Positions 1,386 to 63,742 of a DNA stretch of 64,000 bases are shown here, one piece after another. The stretch comes from Escherichia phage MN01. Made by a program: the position numbers and the translations under genes. The stretch lies in sequence record MT129652.1. One strand, given 5' to 3'. The stretch's first letter is position 1. Each line of letters starts with the position of its first letter. Below the pieces are notes generated by a model. It was not told the DNA's origin. It saw only the letters and a program-made list of their open reading frames with translations, and made no database searches.

Positions 1386-1403
1386 ATGGGGCTTCGGCCC
1401 CAT
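1386..1403 (+). other. intercistronic CUUCGG hairpin (no U-tract) between genes 45 and 44
   Basis: ATGGGGC-ttcg-GCCCCAT; tetraloop stability hairpin typical of T4 mRNAs. Confidence 0.5.
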
Positions 1404-3345: not shown

Positions 3346-3369
3346 AAAGGGACTTCGGTCCCTTTTGTA
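3346..3369 (+). terminator. rho-independent terminator/hairpin after regA (UUCG tetraloop)
   Basis: AAAGGGAC-ttcg-GTCCCTTT then TTTT; next to TATAAT upstream of gene 43. Confidence 0.55.
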
Positions 3370-6143: not shown

Positions 6144-6174
6144 TGTTTACAACGGCAAAGGACTGCCGTATGAT
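6144..6174 (+). promoter_or_regulatory. early sigma70-type promoter upstream of imm
   Basis: GTTTACA -35, about 18 bp, TATGAT -10; hairpin in spacer. Confidence 0.4.
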
Positions 6175-8629: not shown

Positions 8630-8963
8630 TATCGATTTATCTGATTTAGATAATTTCGAGAAAGATGCGGAGGGAGCTAAGGCTCCTTCTGTACCTTACT
8701 ACGAAAAAAGTTTGGAGATTATCCGGCAATCCATGGGAACTGTACGACAGGAAATTCTGTTATCACTCCCTGATGGGTCCAGTCACATCGTGTACGTAAC
8801 CGGAATTAAAATTGAACCATCTGGAAAAGTTTCAGTTGATTTCGGCACCCCTTCTGAAGACCGCAAAGCGGAGCTTGCAGTGCATGTAGAAAAGTGTGTT
8901 ACAATGCAAATACAAGATGAAATTGATAAGATTAAAATGAAAAAGAGGTGGTGGAAGTGGTAG
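8619..8963 (+). CDS. hypothetical protein at gene 40 position
   Basis: 114 aa between uvsX and 41 as T4 gene 40; no sequence recall to confirm. Confidence 0.5.
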   Translation: MMNDIDLSDLDNFEKDAEGAKAPSVPYYEKSLEIIRQSMGTVRQEILLSLPDGSSHIVYVTGIKIEPSGKVSVDFGTPSEDRKAELAVHVEKCVTMQIQDEIDKIKMKKRWWKW

Positions 8964-10387
8964 AAACTATTTTATCCCAGCTACTCTTTAACAAGGAATA
9001 TTTTGTTAAAGTCTGGCCATATCTGAATAACACATATTTTGAAAAGGGTCCAGCGAAGACCCTTTTCAATACGATTAACGAACACGTAAAAGAATATCAA
9101 GCGGTACCAACTAAGACTGCACTTGATATCGCGCTCGACAGCTCTGACCTTTCTGAAGTCGAATATGAAGGCACAAAGAAACTCTTAGGAGTCCTGGCCG
9201 ATACTCCAGAAGACCAGGAATGGTTGGTTAAAGAAACCGAGAAGTATGTACAGAAGTCTGCGATGTTCAATGCCACATCCAGGATTATCGAAATTCAGAG
9301 CAATGCCGAACTTCCGAAAGATAAACGTGATAAACGAATCCCGGATATTGGTGCTATCCCTGATATCATGCGGGATGCATTATCTATCTGTTTTGACTCT
9401 GCCCTGGGCCATGACTGGTTAAACGATTACGAAGCTCGATTCCAGACTTATCTGAACAAATCGAAAAAGGTTCCGTTTCGCATTAACATCCTGAATAAAA
9501 TCACGAAGGGTGGAGTTGAGTATGGTACAGAGAACGTTTTACTGGCCGGGACAAACGTCGGGAAATCTCTAGGACTTTGTTCATTAGCCGCTGACTATCT
9601 TCAGACTGGTCATAATGTGCTTTATATAAGCATGGAAATGGCTGAAGAAGTATGTGCCAAACGTATTGATGCCAACTTGCTGGATGTGTCTCTGGATGAT
9701 ATTGATGAAGGTCATATATCATGGGCGGAATATAAAGCTAAGATGGAAAAATGGCGTGCTTCCGGGACTCTTGGGACTCTGAAGATAAAACAATATCCAA
9801 CTGGTGGTGCTCATGCGGATACCTTCCGCGCATTGCTGAATGAATACAAACTGAAGCAGGGGTTTGTACCGGATGTGATTATTGTTGACTACCTGGCAAT
9901 CTGCGCAAGCTCAAGACTGAAAACGTTTACCGAAAATAGTTACGGTCTGATTAAGATGGTTGCAGAAGAACTTCGTGGTCTGGCAGTCGAGAAAAATGTG
10001 GTTCTATGGACCGCGGCGCAGACAACCAGGGGCGCGAACGTTGCAGCTGAGATTGATATGGCTGATATCGCAGAATCCTTTGGTATTGCTCACACGGCTG
10101 ACTTTATGTTGGGTGTTGTTGAGACCGAAGAATTCGCTCAAATGGGGCTGCAGTTAATCAAACAGCTTAAGTCTCGTTATGGCGATAAGAACTACTATAA
10201 TAAATTCAAGATGGGCGTTAAGAAAGGCAATCAGCGCTGGTATGAGGTTGATGATGATTCGGCTCCTAAACAAGGCCCTACGGTTAAAGAAGCCACCGGT
10301 GAGATGAATCGCCAGGCTGAAATGAATAGACAAACCAGGGTCAACAGGAGCGACCTGGACGACCTCGCTGCTCAAATGAAATTTTAA
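8957..10387 (+). CDS. 41: replicative DNA helicase gp41 (DnaB-like)
   Basis: Matches recalled T4 gp41 from MVExILS; Walker A GTNVGKS; GTG start chosen at 8957, track start 8948. Confidence 0.92.
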   Translation: MVETILSQLLFNKEYFVKVWPYLNNTYFEKGPAKTLFNTINEHVKEYQAVPTKTALDIALDSSDLSEVEYEGTKKLLGVLADTPEDQEWLVKETEKYVQKSAMFNATSRIIEIQSNAELPKDKRDKRIPDIGAIPDIMRDALSICFDSALGHDWLNDYEARFQTYLNKSKKVPFRINILNKITKGGVEYGTENVLLAGTNVGKSLGLCSLAADYLQTGHNVLYISMEMAEEVCAKRIDANLLDVSLDDIDEGHISWAEYKAKMEKWRASGTLGTLKIKQYPTGGAHADTFRALLNEYKLKQGFVPDVIIVDYLAICASSRLKTFTENSYGLIKMVAEELRGLAVEKNVVLWTAAQTTRGANVAAEIDMADIAESFGIAHTADFMLGVVETEEFAQMGLQLIKQLKSRYGDKNYYNKFKMGVKKGNQRWYEVDDDSAPKQGPTVKEATGEMNRQAEMNRQTRVNRSDLDDLAAQMKF

Positions 10388-10400
10388 AATATTTTTAAAA

Positions 10401-10435
10401 AAGGGGTGTACAAGCCCCTTGTCTTAGGACATAAT
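10401..10435 (+). promoter_or_regulatory. PeSL-like early promoter cassette (hairpin + promoter)
   Basis: AAGGGG-tgtaca-GCCCC hairpin with TGTACA as -35, 17-bp spacer, CATAAT -10; conserved leader CCGTACTGAGTTAC. Confidence 0.55.
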
Positions 10436-11618: not shown

Positions 11619-11652
11619 TGTACAACAAAGGGATAATGCTGTATATTATCCC
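11619..11652 (+). promoter_or_regulatory. early promoter cassette with inverted repeat over -10
   Basis: TGTACA, 17 bp, TATATT; GGGATAAT...ATTATCCC 8-bp inverted repeat; leader CTATCAACTACTGAGGAG. Confidence 0.45.
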
Positions 11653-11675
11653 TATCAACTACTGAGGAGATTGAA

Positions 11676-15781: not shown

Positions 15782-15786
15782 TTATA

Positions 15787-15810
15787 GGGACTCTTCGGAG
15801 TCCCTTTTTG
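15787..15810 (+). terminator. rho-independent terminator after soc
   Basis: GGGACTC-ttcg-GAGTCCC then TTTTT. Confidence 0.7.
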
Positions 15811-17649: not shown

Positions 17650-17705
17650 TTTACTTACTCCCCTCCTAATGACATAATGGTCTTTCTTACAACAGAGAGA
17701 CCATT

Positions 17706-18266
17706 ATGAACATCATCAAATCTGATACCGAACCCAACCAGTTAAAATTTAGTGAAATGGAGATAGCTTCATTATTTGAATGCCGCACATCAAAGGTTGA
17801 TAAGACCTTGCATTCAAATGTCAACTCAATCATCAAGTCAAGGTTGTCTATACCCGATACAGTCTTGTGGCGCGGAGTAACCCAGCAAGAGATTGATTTG
17901 TTAGATGAAGCAAAAGAATCAATGCAACCTTTTGAATTTGGACGGGTAACCTCCTTTACAGAAGACTATGGTATTGCCAGGGATTTTGCTGCAATGGAAT
18001 ATGTGACTAGGACTATCGTCAGATTGAATCAGACCAAAGCTTTTTGTTACCATGATGCGATGCGCAAAATCGCGCTTGACGTTCCACTGGAATTCTTCAA
18101 TACAGCTTCTGGTTCCGCCCGGGCAGCTACATTAAGGCGCGAAGAATACATGGACATGATTGATTCTGAGCTTGAATGGTTTGTTCCAGTTGACCAGAAA
18201 TTCGTGGTAGTTGACGCTGGATTTGTTGGTGATTATTATGTTCTTGACTGTGTACAAGAGCAATAA
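17706..18266 (+). CDS. ADP-ribosyltransferase (ModA/ModB family)
   Basis: 186 aa; R (LWRG), S-T-S-like (TSFTED) and ExE (SELEW) ART motifs; mod position next to dda. Confidence 0.7.
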   Translation: MNIIKSDTEPNQLKFSEMEIASLFECRTSKVDKTLHSNVNSIIKSRLSIPDTVLWRGVTQQEIDLLDEAKESMQPFEFGRVTSFTEDYGIARDFAAMEYVTRTIVRLNQTKAFCYHDAMRKIALDVPLEFFNTASGSARAATLRREEYMDMIDSELEWFVPVDQKFVVVDAGFVGDYYVLDCVQEQ

Positions 18267-22414: not shown

Positions 22415-22445
22415 TATCTCATCAACTACTGATGAGGATAACAAA

Positions 22446-23466: not shown

Positions 23467-23500
23467 TGTACAAACTCTTGGGGTCGGAGTATAATGACCC
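23467..23500 (+). promoter_or_regulatory. early promoter cassette with inverted repeat bracketing -10
   Basis: TGTACA, 17 bp, TATAAT; TGGGGTC...GACCCCA flanks the -10. Confidence 0.55.
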
Positions 23501-23537
23501 CACTGGAGAATAAACTTATTAACCAAGAGAGAAAATT

Positions 23538-25187: not shown

Positions 25188-25592
25188 ATGTTTAAAATTG
25201 GAAAGAGTTATTGCATTAAAGATTTAGATGGCTTCCTTAAACATGTCGGTATGCCCGGTAGCATTTTGAACCAACAAGGAACCTCTATTATTGATTTGGT
25301 TACTACCAAAGAGTTTTCAGTCACTAAGATGGAAGCAAATGTTGTTACGGAATTTAGTACTATCGATGGAACTGGATTTTCTTTCCATAGTCGTAATGGA
25401 ACCGGTCTTATTTTTGGTGATGAATTTAAATATTTTGAAGAAACCCCGATAAAGGAATGTGATTCTGAAATAACCGAACAGGAATCAAAAGAGGATATCG
25501 TTGTTACCGGTGGCGATGTTATTATTACGGTTAAAACTGAAGTCGGACGCCTACAAGCTATTAAAATGTTAGAGCAGCTTCGATTCAAATAA
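25188..25592 (+). CDS. hypothetical protein
   Basis: 134 aa (alt. start 25173); followed by CUUCGG terminator. Confidence 0.5.
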   Translation: MFKIGKSYCIKDLDGFLKHVGMPGSILNQQGTSIIDLVTTKEFSVTKMEANVVTEFSTIDGTGFSFHSRNGTGLIFGDEFKYFEETPIKECDSEITEQESKEDIVVTGGDVIITVKTEVGRLQAIKMLEQLRFK

Positions 25593-25611
25593 AAGGCCTT
25601 CGGGCCTTTTT
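25591..25611 (+). terminator. rho-independent terminator
   Basis: AAAAGGCC-ttcg-GGCCTTTTT. Confidence 0.7.
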
Positions 25612-27687: not shown

Positions 27688-27714
27688 AAAAGGACCTTCG
27701 GGTCCTTTTTTATT
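27688..27714 (+). terminator. rho-independent terminator
   Basis: AAAAGGACC-ttcg-GGTCCTTTTTT. Confidence 0.7.
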
Positions 27715-32987: not shown

Positions 32988-33004
32988 ACCAACCATGTAA
33001 TAAT
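32976..33004 (+). promoter_or_regulatory. early promoter (GTTTACA type)
   Basis: GTTTACA, 17 bp, AATAAT with TG two bases upstream. Confidence 0.45.
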
Positions 33005-33032
33005 GTCCTCACACCAACAAATGAGGACATTA
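33001..33032 (+). promoter_or_regulatory. perfect 11-bp stem hairpin sequestering the SD of ORF 33035
   Basis: TAATGTCCTCA-(10 nt loop)-TGAGGACATTA; GAGGA SD lies in the 3-prime arm, ATG 3 nt downstream. Confidence 0.6.
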
Positions 33033-33034
33033 TC

Positions 33035-33321: not shown

Positions 33322-33350
33322 TGTACATCAGTATGGAGTCTATGTATAAT
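33322..33350 (+). promoter_or_regulatory. early promoter cassette
   Basis: AAAAGTAGTGTACA, 17 bp, TATAAT; leader CCATACTGAGTTACCAAA. Confidence 0.55.
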
Positions 33351-33386
33351 GATTCCATACTGAGTTACCAAATACTGGAGAATAAA

Positions 33387-33542
33387 ATGAAACCTGCTCA
33401 ATATGCAATGACTTTATACCTTGAAGTTAATGGCGATATTACTGAATTTTTTAAATTAATGCAACAGCGCGGAAAAAGTTTTGCAGTTACTGAGCGTCAA
33501 TTTTACGCGTGTCGCAAAAATACATACAATCGTTATGCATGA
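33387..33542 (+). CDS. small hypothetical protein (51 aa)
   Basis: SD GGAG; promoter cassette upstream; track ORF 33321 trimmed. Confidence 0.4.
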   Translation: MKPAQYAMTLYLEVNGDITEFFKLMQQRGKSFAVTERQFYACRKNTYNRYA

Positions 33543-33904: not shown

Positions 33905-33955
33905 TATACATCTCCAGTGGTTGTAGTATAATGAACCTATCAACTACTGGAGATG
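33905..33955 (+). promoter_or_regulatory. early promoter cassette with 10-bp inverted repeat
   Basis: TATACA, about 16 bp, TATAAT; CATCTCCAGT...ACTGGAGATG brackets -10 and leader. Confidence 0.4.
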
Positions 33956-34691: not shown

Positions 34692-34720
34692 TGTACAAAC
34701 TTTTGGGAGCAGAGTATAAT
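34692..34720 (+). promoter_or_regulatory. early promoter cassette
   Basis: TAGTGTACA, 17 bp, TATAAT; TGGGA...TCCCA inverted repeat. Confidence 0.55.
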
Positions 34721-34759
34721 GTTCCCAGTGGATAATAAAATTTAGCTGAGGAAATCATT

Positions 34760-35104: not shown

Positions 35105-35138
35105 TGTACAAACTCTTGGGGTCTGAGTATAATGACCC
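35105..35138 (+). promoter_or_regulatory. early promoter cassette
   Basis: TAGTGTACA, 17 bp, TATAAT; TGGGGTC...GACCCCA nearly identical to the 23467 cassette. Confidence 0.55.
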
Positions 35139-35177
35139 CACTGGAGCACAAAACTTTAACTTACTGAGGAAATTAAT

Positions 35178-37390: not shown

Positions 37391-37485
37391 GTTTTGGAGT
37401 TGAGTTTGCATTGCTTTGTATTTTCGCGGCAATCGCAGGTGTGATTGTTGGTATGTTTATTGGTAATAAGATAGATAAAGACTAG
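37387..37485 (+). CDS. small membrane peptide (32 aa)
   Basis: Overlaps gene 52 stop; hydrophobic; followed by terminator. Confidence 0.3.
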   Translation: MSFGVEFALLCIFAAIAGVIVGMFIGNKIDKD

Positions 37486-37507
37486 GACCCTTCGGGGTCC
37501 TTTTTTA
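37484..37507 (+). terminator. rho-independent terminator after gene 52 region
   Basis: AGGACCC-ttcg-GGGTCCT then TTTTTT. Confidence 0.7.
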
Positions 37508-37531
37508 TTTTAAAATATTTTAAAAAAGTAG

Positions 37532-37560: not shown

Positions 37561-37609
37561 GATTCCATACTGAGTTACACAATGAATCACAAAAACTTTG
37601 GAGAATAAA

Positions 37610-37825
37610 ATGTTTACTGCACAACAGAATGAAGGTCAAGAATACATTAACGCTAAATTCAAATCCAATAAAGAAGCTTGCTATTACTACTTTGACATGT
37701 TCAAACTGGCGAATTCTAAAGAAGAACGTAAACAAGCGATTGATGTTATTGTTTCCACTTCCCATATGAAACGTACTGTGGTACAATCATATGCATCAAA
37801 TTACATGAAATCTATTAAGGGATAA
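37610..37825 (+). CDS. hypothetical protein
   Basis: 71 aa from SD-preceded ATG; promoter cassette upstream. Confidence 0.5.
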   Translation: MFTAQQNEGQEYINAKFKSNKEACYYYFDMFKLANSKEERKQAIDVIVSTSHMKRTVVQSYASNYMKSIKG

Positions 37826-53214: not shown

Positions 53215-53274
53215 AGTATAATTAATACGTAATCAAAACAACTGCTAAAAATCAAATAATCTAAGGAAAATCAT
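53215..53274 (+). promoter_or_regulatory. gene 32 AU-rich leader (putative autoregulatory translational operator)
   Basis: Long A/U-rich unstructured leader upstream of gene 32; T4 gp32 autoregulates via such a leader. Confidence 0.3.
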
Positions 53275-54186: not shown

Positions 54187-54191
54187 TATAA

Positions 54192-54215
54192 GGGGACCTT
54201 CGGGTCCCTTTTTTA
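54192..54215 (+). terminator. rho-independent terminator after gene 32
   Basis: GGGGACC-ttcg-GGTCCC then TTTTTT. Confidence 0.7.
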
Positions 54216-54229
54216 TTTTCAAAAAGTAG

Positions 54230-54258
54230 TGTACAAGTCCTTTGAGCTAAGGCATAAT
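54230..54258 (+). promoter_or_regulatory. early promoter cassette
   Basis: AAAAGTAGTGTACA, 17 bp, CATAAT; leader CCATCAACTACTGA. Confidence 0.55.
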
Positions 54259-54296
54259 GATTCCATCAACTACTGATAACAACTGAGGAAATAAAA

Positions 54297-54662: not shown

Positions 54663-54697
54663 TTTACAACGGGTCTATGGTTGAGATACTATAGACC
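54663..54697 (+). promoter_or_regulatory. early promoter cassette with inverted repeat
   Basis: GTTTACA -35; GGTCTAT...ATAGACC over -10 region; leader CTATCAACTACATGAGGAA. Confidence 0.4.
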
Positions 54698-54721
54698 TAT
54701 CAACTACATGAGGAAAATAAA

Positions 54722-54949
54722 ATGGCTAAGGTTAATATTGATATCGTTGATTTTGAATACACTTACGAAGTTATTCGTAATCGGTATCCTTCTTTGTGTA
54801 TGACTTACATTAAAGATACTGAAGTCTTTGGTATTCAAATTGAAGTCCAAGGTCCTCTTGAAGATATTACCCGCTTTATGCAAAATGAATATTGTGACGG
54901 TATGTATCCAGAAGACACTAAATTTTATATGAATTTGATTGAAGCTTAA
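54722..54949 (+). CDS. hypothetical protein
   Basis: 75 aa; promoter cassette upstream. Confidence 0.5.
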
Positions 54950-54950
54950 G

Positions 54951-54985
54951 TATACAAACAAACGGGAACATGATAATATGTTCCC
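54951..54985 (+). promoter_or_regulatory. early promoter cassette with -10 hexamer as hairpin loop
   Basis: TATACA -35; perfect GGGAACAT-gataat-ATGTTCCC inverted repeat. Confidence 0.45.
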
Positions 54986-55009
54986 TCAATTGAATATGAG
55001 GAAATTAAA

Positions 55010-55372
55010 ATGGAAACTGGTAAATTTTACGTATTAGACCCTGCTGCCAAAAAACAATTCATCGCTGGTAGTCCTGATGATAATTCGTGCATCGTCAAGT
55101 TGATGGAACAACACGGTAATTCCTTCAAAGTCCTGGATATGTGTTATATTGAAGGTGATTATTTTGTTGAAAAAGTTGAAATGAAAGATGGTACCATTCT
55201 GAATAGTATGGGTGATTCTGATGAGTACTTTGAACTTGGTGAATGGGAATTCCAACATTTCATGGAAGTTGATGGCGATGCACCTGTTGATACCCAAACC
55301 ATTCATGTGCAGGTAAATCACAAAAATGCGGCAGAAGTTGTTGCCTTGATTAAAGCAACTTTTGGAATTTAA
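55010..55372 (+). CDS. hypothetical protein (paralog family B)
   Basis: 120 aa; paralog of 54297..54659. Confidence 0.55.
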   Translation: METGKFYVLDPAAKKQFIAGSPDDNSCIVKLMEQHGNSFKVLDMCYIEGDYFVEKVEMKDGTILNSMGDSDEYFELGEWEFQHFMEVDGDAPVDTQTIHVQVNHKNAAEVVALIKATFGI

Positions 55373-55635: not shown

Positions 55636-55664
55636 TGTACAACCAAATGGGGCTATGACATAAT
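55636..55664 (+). promoter_or_regulatory. early promoter cassette
   Basis: AAAAGTAGTGTACA, 17 bp, CATAAT; leader CCCATACTGAGTTAACAA. Confidence 0.55.
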
Positions 55665-55705
55665 GGTCCCATACTGAGTTAACAACTAAAACACTGGAGA
55701 ATAAA

Positions 55706-62103: not shown

Positions 62104-62123
62104 AAAGGGCTTCGGCCCTTTTT
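62104..62123 (+). terminator. rho-independent terminator after nrdB
   Basis: AAAGGGC-ttcg-GCCCTTTTT. Confidence 0.65.
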
Positions 62124-63676: not shown

Positions 63677-63700
63677 AAGGGGTGTACAAGCCCCTTCTTT
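63677..63700 (+). terminator. hairpin/weak terminator after rnlA, fused to promoter -35
   Basis: AAAAAGGGG-tgtacaa-GCCCCTTCTTT. Confidence 0.45.
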
Positions 63701-63711: not shown

Positions 63712-63742
63712 GGTTCCATCAACTACTGATGAGGACCAAAAC

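Follow-up and report, generated by a model that had tools for sequence, protein, structure and literature searches.

The window analysed here is a 64,000-nucleotide stretch of Escherichia phage MN01 (MT129652.1), a T4-like coliphage belonging to Gaprivervirus whose best matches (TH22, TH41, DK-13, SP18, RZ, PSD2001 and VR20) are 94-97% identical. Located downstream of gene 32, between a 75-aa ORF and an frd.2-like ORF, is a promoter cassette whose parts span 54951-55012 (+ strand), referred to here as the primary site, which reads GTATACAaacaaacGGGAACATgataatATGTTCCCtcaattgaatatGAGGAaattaaaATG. It consists of a -35 hexamer, a -10 element, a Shine-Dalgarno (SD) sequence and the ATG of the frd.2-like ORF, and its core contains an inverted repeat whose arms, GGGAACAT and ATGTTCCC, form 8 perfect base pairs around a 6-nt loop. 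The positions of these parts, and of the other hairpins discussed below, are collected in Table 1.

Table 1 Features of the primary site and other promoter-associated hairpins in the window.
Feature	Position	Strand	Remarks
Upstream stop codon TAA	54947-54949	+	Ends 75-aa ORF (54722-54949)
-35 hexamer TATACA, primary cassette	54951-54956	+	Belongs to cassette-wide GT(G/T/A)TACA motif
5' arm GGGAACAT	54964-54971	+	Inside promoter spacer
Extended -10 TG (TGaTAATAT)	54971-54972	+	Precedes TAATAT
Loop GATAAT	54972-54977	+	Between the two arms of the primary repeat
Likely functional -10 TAATAT	54974-54979	+	17-bp spacer
3' arm ATGTTCCC	54978-54985	+	Over 3' half of -10 and discriminator
Shine-Dalgarno GAGGA	54998-55002	+	
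ATG of downstream frd.2-like ORF	ATG 55010; ORF 55010-55372	+	SP18 annotation frd.2b
-10-bracketing hairpin AGGGATAAT-gctgtat-ATTATCCCT	11629-11653	+	9 bp
-10-bracketing hairpin TGGGGTC-ggagtataat-GACCCCA	23479-23502	+	
-10-bracketing hairpin TCAGTATGGA(GTC)...(GAT)TCCATACTGA	33328-33363	+	10 perfect bp; 13 bp with one G·U
Long hairpin spanning -10	33909-33955	+	dG -25.5 sense versus -21.7 antisense
-10-bracketing hairpin TGGGAGCA-gagtataa-TGTTCCCA	34704-34727	+	8 bp with one G·U; -14.2 sense versus -7.3 antisense kcal/mol
-10-bracketing hairpin TGGGGTC-tgagtataat-GACCCCA	35117-35140	+	Upstream of ndd
-10-bracketing hairpin GGGTCTATGGT-tgagat-ACTATAGACCT	54671-54698	+	Perfect core GGTCTAT/ATAGACC (54672-54697), plus G·U
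-10-bracketing hairpin ATGGGGCTAT-gacata-ATGGTCCCAT	55647-55672	+	10 bp including 2 G·U
Spacer-only hairpin ACGGCA-aaggac-TGCCGT (promoter at 6145)	6152-6169	+	Other subclass, same cassette family
AAGGGG-tgtacaag-CCCCTT, -35 in loop (promoter at 10406)	10401-10420	+	Other subclass; followed by T-rich sequence
AAGGGG-tgtacaag-CCCCTT + CTTTCT, -35 in loop (promoter at 63682)	63677-63696	+	Other subclass, terminator-like
Classical UUCG terminator hairpin upstream of promoter at 37531	37484-37501	+	
Classical C(UUCG)G terminator and T-run just upstream of promoter at 54229	54190-54211	+	Other subclass

A sequence-only reading of the primary site had described a perfect 8-bp inverted repeat with the -10 element as its loop. 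The arms were exact, but the loop is probably not identical with the -10: the distance from TATACA to GATAAT is only 15 bp, whereas that from TATACA to TAATAT is 17 bp, the spacing typical of the cassettes. Because TAATAT is correctly spaced and carries an extended -10 TG, the working -10 probably extends from the loop into the 3' arm rather than lying strictly in the loop. Judged from the position of the -10 alone, the start site would fall at or just after the end of the 3' arm. The 3' arm ends upstream of the SD, such that neither the SD nor the AUG would be sequestered in read-through RNA. The stability of the repeat was almost equal on the two strands (-11.9 sense versus -11.6 antisense), also when DNA parameters were used (-7.0 and -6.9 kcal/mol, z about -4.2 and -4.4). 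Over 7 orthologous variants the arms were near-invariant while the flanks varied, with one outer G to T change in TH41 and RZ. This invariance is compatible with constraint, and the primary site alone gives no compensatory evidence; its orthologues were uninformative on covariation, and that signal was drawn from the wider cassette families.

The primary site is one of approximately 19 repeated intergenic early-promoter cassettes in the window. Each combines GT(G/T/A)TACA with a TATAAT-like -10 at a spacing of 16-18 bp (17 bp for 16 of the 19), and they are putative promoters by sequence match. The GTNTACAA motif occurred 23 times in the window, nearly always on the + strand, compared to 10.1 ± 3.1 times in shuffled sequence. 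At every cassette the order is the same: upstream stop codon, 17-bp spacer and -10, conserved 5' UTR block, and ATG. The stop codon is often a TAG that overlaps the -35 (TAGTGTACA), the tracts upstream of the promoters are A/T-rich (for example AAAAAGTAG), and the 5' UTR block reads ATCAACTACTGA(T)GAGGA or GATTCCATACTGAGTTAC...ACTGGAG. Cassettes also precede ndd, asiA and many small early ORFs, and they cluster at 33.3-35.1 kb (the ndd region) and 54.2-55.6 kb (the frd.2 region), surrounded by ORFs 40-150 aa long; the tail-fibre block (40.3-51 kb) contains no cassettes. The genes that flank the cassettes are all on the + strand, and read-through from upstream is therefore possible. Similar cassettes were present in the JS98-like genomes compared. 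Searches for related loci with the downstream proteins yielded 4-9 related genomes each, and the comparison was therefore made on 20-42 kb stretches of annotated Gaprivervirus records. A scan of viral contigs with AGTGTACA-N17-TATAAT returned 120 mostly unrelated contigs; its 14 specified bases were too unspecific, and the result was discarded.

Five further sites had been listed as bracketing the -10 (near 11630, 23480, 35118, 34702 and 54672), and all of them were present. Three additional hairpins of the same design were identified at 33328-33363, 33909-33955 and 55647-55672. Hairpins over the -10 occur in 9 of about 19 cassettes, with fold z-scores of -3.2 to -4.6. Those at 34704-34727 and 33909-33955 are more stable on the sense strand, and at 55647-55672 the sense strand folds (-14.6 kcal/mol, z -3.2) while the antisense strand is essentially unstructured (-6.3 kcal/mol, z +0.4). 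At 33909-33955 the 3' arm overlies the SD GGAG and the region around the start codon of the next ORF, both of which would be sequestered in read-through RNA only; the cassettes at 17673-17708 and 33000-33033 likewise place a 3' arm over the SD or AUG. Hairpins are not confined to the -10: a cassette has a single hairpin whose place differs, and all five stem-loop positions are represented in the window, from upstream of the promoter and over the -35, through the spacer and the -10, to downstream. A search of the whole window against Rfam families gave 0 hits at the gathering threshold.

The abundance of these repeats was assessed on perfect inverted repeats whose stems were 7 bp or longer, whose loops measured 3-16 nt and which had 3 or more G/C. 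The window contained 41 such repeats, compared to 23.7 ± 4.6 in dinucleotide shuffles, and one isolated 8-bp repeat in 64 kb is not significant. Their placement was far from random: promoter cores, which make up about 1.4% of the window, held 6 of the 41 repeats when 0.33 were expected (Poisson P = 1.4e-6). When spacer and discriminator were shuffled within each promoter, 7 of the 19 cassettes reached p < 0.05 (Fisher combined p = 1.6e-5). For a partner-swap control, 71 distinct cassettes were collected, both from the window and from 29 related loci, and the spacer of one was paired with the discriminator of another. The true pairings gave 20 strong stems; the swapped ones averaged 2.9, and none of 300 permutations exceeded 10.

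The sequence-only reading had proposed an analysis of compensatory changes in related phages, and in the wider cassette families the arms did co-vary. Among 14 distinct members of the 'aactcTGGG...' family, 99.1% of cells were standard pairs, compared to 42-54% when the 3' partner was slid, and 2 of 8 pairs carried compensatory double changes (A-U to or from G-C, and G-C/G·U to or from U-A), although the compared cassettes share descent and such counts are not fully independent. The observed covariation score was reached by 0 of 500 shuffles. A second family showed a paired indel, with GGTCTAT/ATAGACC in some members and GGCTAT/ATAGCC in others. Roughly half of the promoters that share the -35, the -10 and even the 3' 'arm' sequence have no 5' arm, and the hairpin is therefore facultative. 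The inverted repeats over promoter -10 boxes are real and under selection.

The hairpins over the -10 share with intrinsic terminators, including the C(UUCG)G type typical of T4, a GC-clamped stem directly after a stop codon. They differ in their larger loops (4-16 nt) and in the sequence that follows. No U-tract was found after the -10-bracketing hairpins on the sense strand, where the next 10 nt hold 1-4 U, whereas U-tracts are present at 54190-54211 and 63677-63696. On this basis a canonical intrinsic terminator was rejected for the -10-bracketing class. True UUCG terminators with a T-run do occur in the same cassette family, and their distribution is complementary to that of the hairpins over the -10. 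The promoters at 54229 and 37531, each with a classical UUCG terminator upstream, and those at 10406 and 63682, with the -35 in a terminator loop, have no -10 hairpin. Over 110 distinct cassettes the folding energies of the upstream or -35 hairpin and of the -10-bracketing hairpin were anticorrelated (Spearman -0.54), and the same held when the window was taken by itself (rho -0.62, p = 0.008; Fisher p = 0.015). Because the two kinds of hairpin are distributed in this complementary manner, the results suggest that the -10-bracketing hairpin does the job performed elsewhere by an ordinary terminator hairpin, namely ending, attenuating or 3'-protecting the upstream transcript.

The form in which the repeat acts was addressed through its imperfections. 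In stems with at least 6 Watson-Crick pairs, the internal mismatches read on the sense strand were 18 G·T/T·G, 1 C·A and 1 A·A. Counted as independent events by our own tally, wobbles stood at about 8 versus 1 (binomial p = 0.04). Each sense-strand G·T corresponds to an A·C on the opposite strand, and this asymmetry argues that selection acts on the single-stranded sense form. G·T is the least destabilising mismatch in single-stranded DNA as well, which leaves room for a DNA hairpin on the non-template strand. The sense hairpin was more stable than the antisense hairpin in 10 of 11 cases (Wilcoxon p = 0.005), a bias not expected of a duplex-DNA feature with equivalent strands or of a site bound by a protein dimer. 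Together, the strand bias and the wobbles point to an RNA hairpin in transcripts reading through from upstream rather than to a cruciform or protein site. The sequence-only reading had regarded the repeat as a DNA-level feature that lies upstream of the likely start. The placement was borne out, as the arms occupy spacer and discriminator, upstream of the predicted start, and would be absent from the promoter's own mRNA. The assignment to DNA was not, since wobbles and strand stability favour read-through RNA. That was the third of the three options offered, after cruciform potential and protein binding, and the G·T excess, the greater sense-strand stability, the differing arms and the complementarity with terminators all favour it.

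What had been overlooked was that this architecture is already described. Promoter-early stem-loop (PeSL) cassettes were reported in phages RB49 and phi1, where five subclasses were distinguished by the position of the stem-loop, including subclasses that overlap the -10 and stems that contain G-T pairs (Arbiol et al. 2010, PMC2839356). In that work one PeSL stem-loop placed before lacZ cut downstream expression to an extent comparable to the rrnB T1 terminator, and recombination between cassettes yielded mini-circles (PMC2839356). PeSLs were later extended to PST/T4 and nt-1/KVP40 (Comeau et al. 2014, PMC4122927); the PST/T4 stem-loops lie just upstream of the promoter (PMC4122927). JS98 is mentioned only in passing in the literature on such cassettes. 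In the phi1 sequence, our own check found a -10 enclosed by GGGGGTAT-taat-ATACCCCC, and spacers with GGGGATC...GATCCCC.

The cassettes of RB49/phi1 and of the MN01 window agree in their order of parts (intergenic stop codon, AT-rich tract, sigma-70-like -35 and -10, stem-loop, SD and ATG), in the five stem-loop positions, in arms rich in G on the 5' side and in C on the 3' side, with G-T pairs within the stems, and in clustering among small variable early ORFs (hyperplastic regions) with indel and rearrangement breakpoints at the cassettes. At the level of sequence, the sites described here thus have every feature of a PeSL cassette. The two sets also differ. RB49 and phi1 belong to Krischvirus and the arm sequences are not the same; the -35 consensus is GTGTACA in the Gaprivervirus cassettes and TTGACA in the others; and the subclass with the -10 in the loop dominates here, whereas the spacer subclass was commoner in the phi1 stretch scanned (4 of 6). 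The drop in expression and the mini-circles were reported for RB49/phi1 only, and the cassettes of the MN01 window are known from sequence.

Promoters embedded in hairpin-encoding DNA are also familiar from the T4 genes e, soc, 49 and I-TevI (review PMC3014915). As in T4, read-through transcripts of the MN01 cassettes would form the hairpin while transcripts from the embedded promoter would lack its 5' arm, and the cassettes at 17673-17708, 33000-33033 and 33909-33955 share with T4 a 3' arm over the SD or AUG. The embedded T4 promoters, however, are late (TATAAATA) or middle promoters, and there the hairpin serves to silence translation of early read-through RNA. In the -10-bracketing class the 3' arm would end before the start site and leaves the SD untouched, and translation would not be sequestered.

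The interpretation we favour, with a probability of roughly 70%, is that these sites are PeSL-type composite cassettes in which the hairpin serves the upstream transcript and acts in read-through RNA. Where intergenic room is lacking, the 3'-end hairpin of the upstream transcript may have been written into promoter positions that sigma-70 does not read. With the stop codon abutting the -35, the spacer and the discriminator are the only places where a hairpin fits; a 5' arm in the spacer and a 3' arm in the discriminator would leave the -10 in or beside the loop. The hairpin would fold in sense RNA made by polymerases arriving from upstream promoters, while transcripts from the cassette's own promoter, given the predicted start sites, would start at the 3' arm or beyond it and would not include the hairpin. 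Within read-through RNA the hairpin would most likely attenuate or terminate transcription or block 3' exonucleases, and either effect could insulate neighbouring early genes from each other.

An extension of this composite-cassette interpretation, which we regard as speculative and rather improbable, concerns how termination might proceed with no U-tract. A consensus -10 on the non-template strand causes sigma-70-dependent pausing. A polymerase reading through the cassette may accordingly pause at the -10 by way of sigma-70 while the hairpin leaves the RNA exit channel, the pause replacing the U-tract and the promoter itself thereby providing a U-less terminator. The geometry is compatible with such an arrangement, as the 3' arm ends 6-8 nt after the -10. 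If true, termination would occur exactly at the next initiation point and promoter occlusion would be avoided. It would also account for the absent U-tracts despite the finding that one phi1/RB49 PeSL stem-loop matched rrnB T1.

A structure formed in the DNA itself is unlikely. In such a case a cruciform driven by supercoiling, or a hairpin in the non-template strand, would hold the -10 single-stranded and tune open-complex formation or sensitivity to supercoiling. Both arms lie upstream of the predicted start with the loop overlapping the -10, the primary site folds about equally on its two strands with RNA and DNA parameters alike, and DNA hairpins tolerate G·T to some extent. A symmetric cruciform would not, however, be expected to show mismatches biased to one strand (18 G·T/T·G versus 1 C·A) or greater sense stability in 10 of 11 cases, and for several of the antisense partners there is hardly any folding, as at 55647-55672. 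The stems are short (7-10 bp), their energies as DNA are weak (-4.7 and -2.9 for 34697-34734), the repeat is absent from promoters with an identical -35 and -10, and promoter melting leaves the complementary distribution with upstream terminators unexplained. Systems in which a DNA hairpin is the functional form do exist, namely the early promoters of the phage N4 virion RNA polymerase and the single-strand promoters of the F plasmid Frpo type. There the hairpin is recognised by a dedicated polymerase, or the -35/-10 duplex forms within single-stranded DNA. The likeness, drawn from general background, lies in inverted repeats at promoters; the cassettes described here differ in being ordinary duplex sigma-70 promoters whose strand-biased wobbles point to RNA.

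The cassettes are also sites of rearrangement. SP18 lacks exactly positions 54725-54995 of the window, which comprise the 75-aa ORF and the primary cassette; this stretch is bounded by two cassettes, and the deletion junction lies in SD-ATG homology common to both. In TH57 and TH15 two flanking gene modules occur in swapped order, with breakpoints at the cassettes at 54229, 54950 and 55635, and the cassette L006:1444 is a chimera joined in the loop. The repeated cassettes, roughly 70-100 bp in length, may thus double as homology patches for deleting, inserting and permuting gene modules. It is quite unlikely that recombination is the main role of the hairpin, with the structure serving as a target for a structure-specific enzyme such as a junction-resolving nuclease during module excision or insertion and having no transcriptional role. 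The coincidence of breakpoints with cassettes and the junction in the loop of the chimera fit such a device, but the SP18 junction lies outside the hairpin, hairpin-less cassettes such as that at 54229 are also found at breakpoints, homologous recombination between 70-100 bp repeats would suffice, and the strand-biased wobbles point to a single-stranded sense molecule.

Termination of antisense (minus-strand) transcription entering the early region is very improbable and was rejected, even though, in a consensus scan, the primary site read on the minus strand resembles a terminator (GGGAACATATTATCATGTTCCC + GTTTGTTTGT) and minus-strand tails are somewhat richer in U (3-7 versus 1-4 per 10 nt on the plus strand). 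This T-richness is largely the conserved -35 motif read backwards (ACAAAC to GTTTGT), in 10 of 11 cases the hairpin is weaker on the minus strand, where some are nearly absent, and the wobble pairs are on the plus strand. A palindrome over the -10 occupies a classical repressor-operator position, and a dimeric phage or host protein bound there could in principle repress or activate early promoters; Arbiol et al. raised the speculation that a protein might recognise GGGG...CCCC. A role as operator is nevertheless highly improbable and was likewise rejected. Neither a shared recognition sequence nor a fixed half-site spacing was found across the sites, as the arms are unrelated between cassettes (GGGAACAT, AGGGATAAT, TGGGGTC, GGTCTAT and TCAGTATGGA) and the loops range from 4 to 16 nt. 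What the compensatory changes preserve is pairing rather than sequence, and mismatches biased to G·T are unexpected in a duplex site. Chance palindromes in AT-rich intergenic DNA have almost no remaining probability, for although about 24 perfect repeats of such size are expected in 64 kb, the co-localisation with promoter cores, the within-promoter shuffles, the partner-swap control and the compensatory changes all speak against them.

No systematic description of such cassettes in Gaprivervirus or JS98-like phages was found in the searchable literature, nor anything usable on transcript-end mapping in T4-like coliphages or on the promoters of VR7- and SP18-type phages. The cassettes of the MN01 window add three lines of comparative evidence to those in the original PeSL papers: compensatory changes in the arms, wobbles biased to the sense strand, and mutual exclusion with classical terminators. 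Together these lines indicate that the stem-loop is selected as a structure of sense-strand RNA. If the sites are indeed PeSL-type cassettes, then PeSLs also organise the early-gene regions of Gaprivervirus. For annotation and phage engineering, the cassettes would mark the boundaries of promoters and insulators, and likely recombination joints, among the early genes of these phages.

The window has at least eight UUCG-tetraloop hairpins with GC stems, the stable terminator hairpins classical for T4-type phages. A large part of the surplus of inverted repeats in the window is attributable to them. A T-run follows the hairpin in both of the cases checked (37484-37501 and 54190-54211). The hairpin of the primary cassette was flagged as terminator-like when read on the minus strand (54985-54964), where it is followed by GTTTGTTTGT. 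The T-richness at this site is mostly the -35 region in reverse reading. A further perfect 12-bp inverted repeat, TTGAAAAGGGTC-cagcgaa-GACCCTTTTCAA, lies within the mechanically listed ORF 8948-10387 (GTG start). Should translation of this ORF really begin further downstream, the repeat may be an intergenic terminator.

Inverted repeats and other features by location
Feature	Source	Position
GC-stem UUCG-tetraloop hairpins	window	1386-1403, 3346-3365, 15786-15805, 25591-25610, 27688-27709, 37484-37501, 54190-54211, 62104-62121
12-bp inverted repeat	window	9039-9069
Long-hairpin cassettes (three)	window	17673-17708; 33000-33033; 33909-33955
5' UTR blocks (examples)	window	11654-11672, 22420-22436, 54254-54275, 63716-63733; 33364-33395, 37575-37625, 55673-55705
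TTGGTACAGGT(T)-atgatattat-(A)ACCTGTACCAA hairpin	related Gaprivervirus genomes	L142:31570, L144:21429

The 75-aa ORF and the primary cassette (54725-54995) form a module that is either present or absent, and it is absent from phage SP18. In TH57 and TH15, the frd.2a plus 75-aa module and the frd.2b module are swapped in order. All breakpoints of these rearrangements, as seen by comparing the window with SP18, TH57 and TH15, fall in promoter cassettes. Between genes 59 and 32, a segG-like homing-endonuclease gene is located in DK-13, SP18 and RZ, and is lacking in the window (53215-53274) and PSD2001.

Two conserved 5' UTR blocks recur 3' of many -10 boxes in the window. One, ATCAACTACTGA(T)GAGGA, is itself capable of forming a CTCATCA-actac-TGATGAG hairpin; the other is GATTCCATACTGAGTTAC...ACTGGAG. 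In cassettes 23466 and 35104, which carry -10-bracketing hairpins, a non-SD GGAG lies 2 nt 3' of the hairpin (ACTGGAG), and could be a RegB-type endoribonuclease site. The strongest -10-bracketing hairpin found anywhere, with 11-12 perfect bp, belongs to a cassette that is absent from the window and was found in two related genomes.

In three cassettes, long hairpins hold the -10 or discriminator within the 5' arm and the downstream SD and/or start codon within the 3' arm, as exemplified by the arm pairs CATAATGGTCT...AGACCATTATG and ATAATGTCCTCA...TGAGGACATTAT. This is the design of T4 genes e, soc and 49, but the promoters in the window's three cassettes are early sigma-70 promoters, unlike those of the T4 genes. 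At these cassettes, the ribosome site would be sequestered in read-through RNA, yet free in promoter-initiated RNA.
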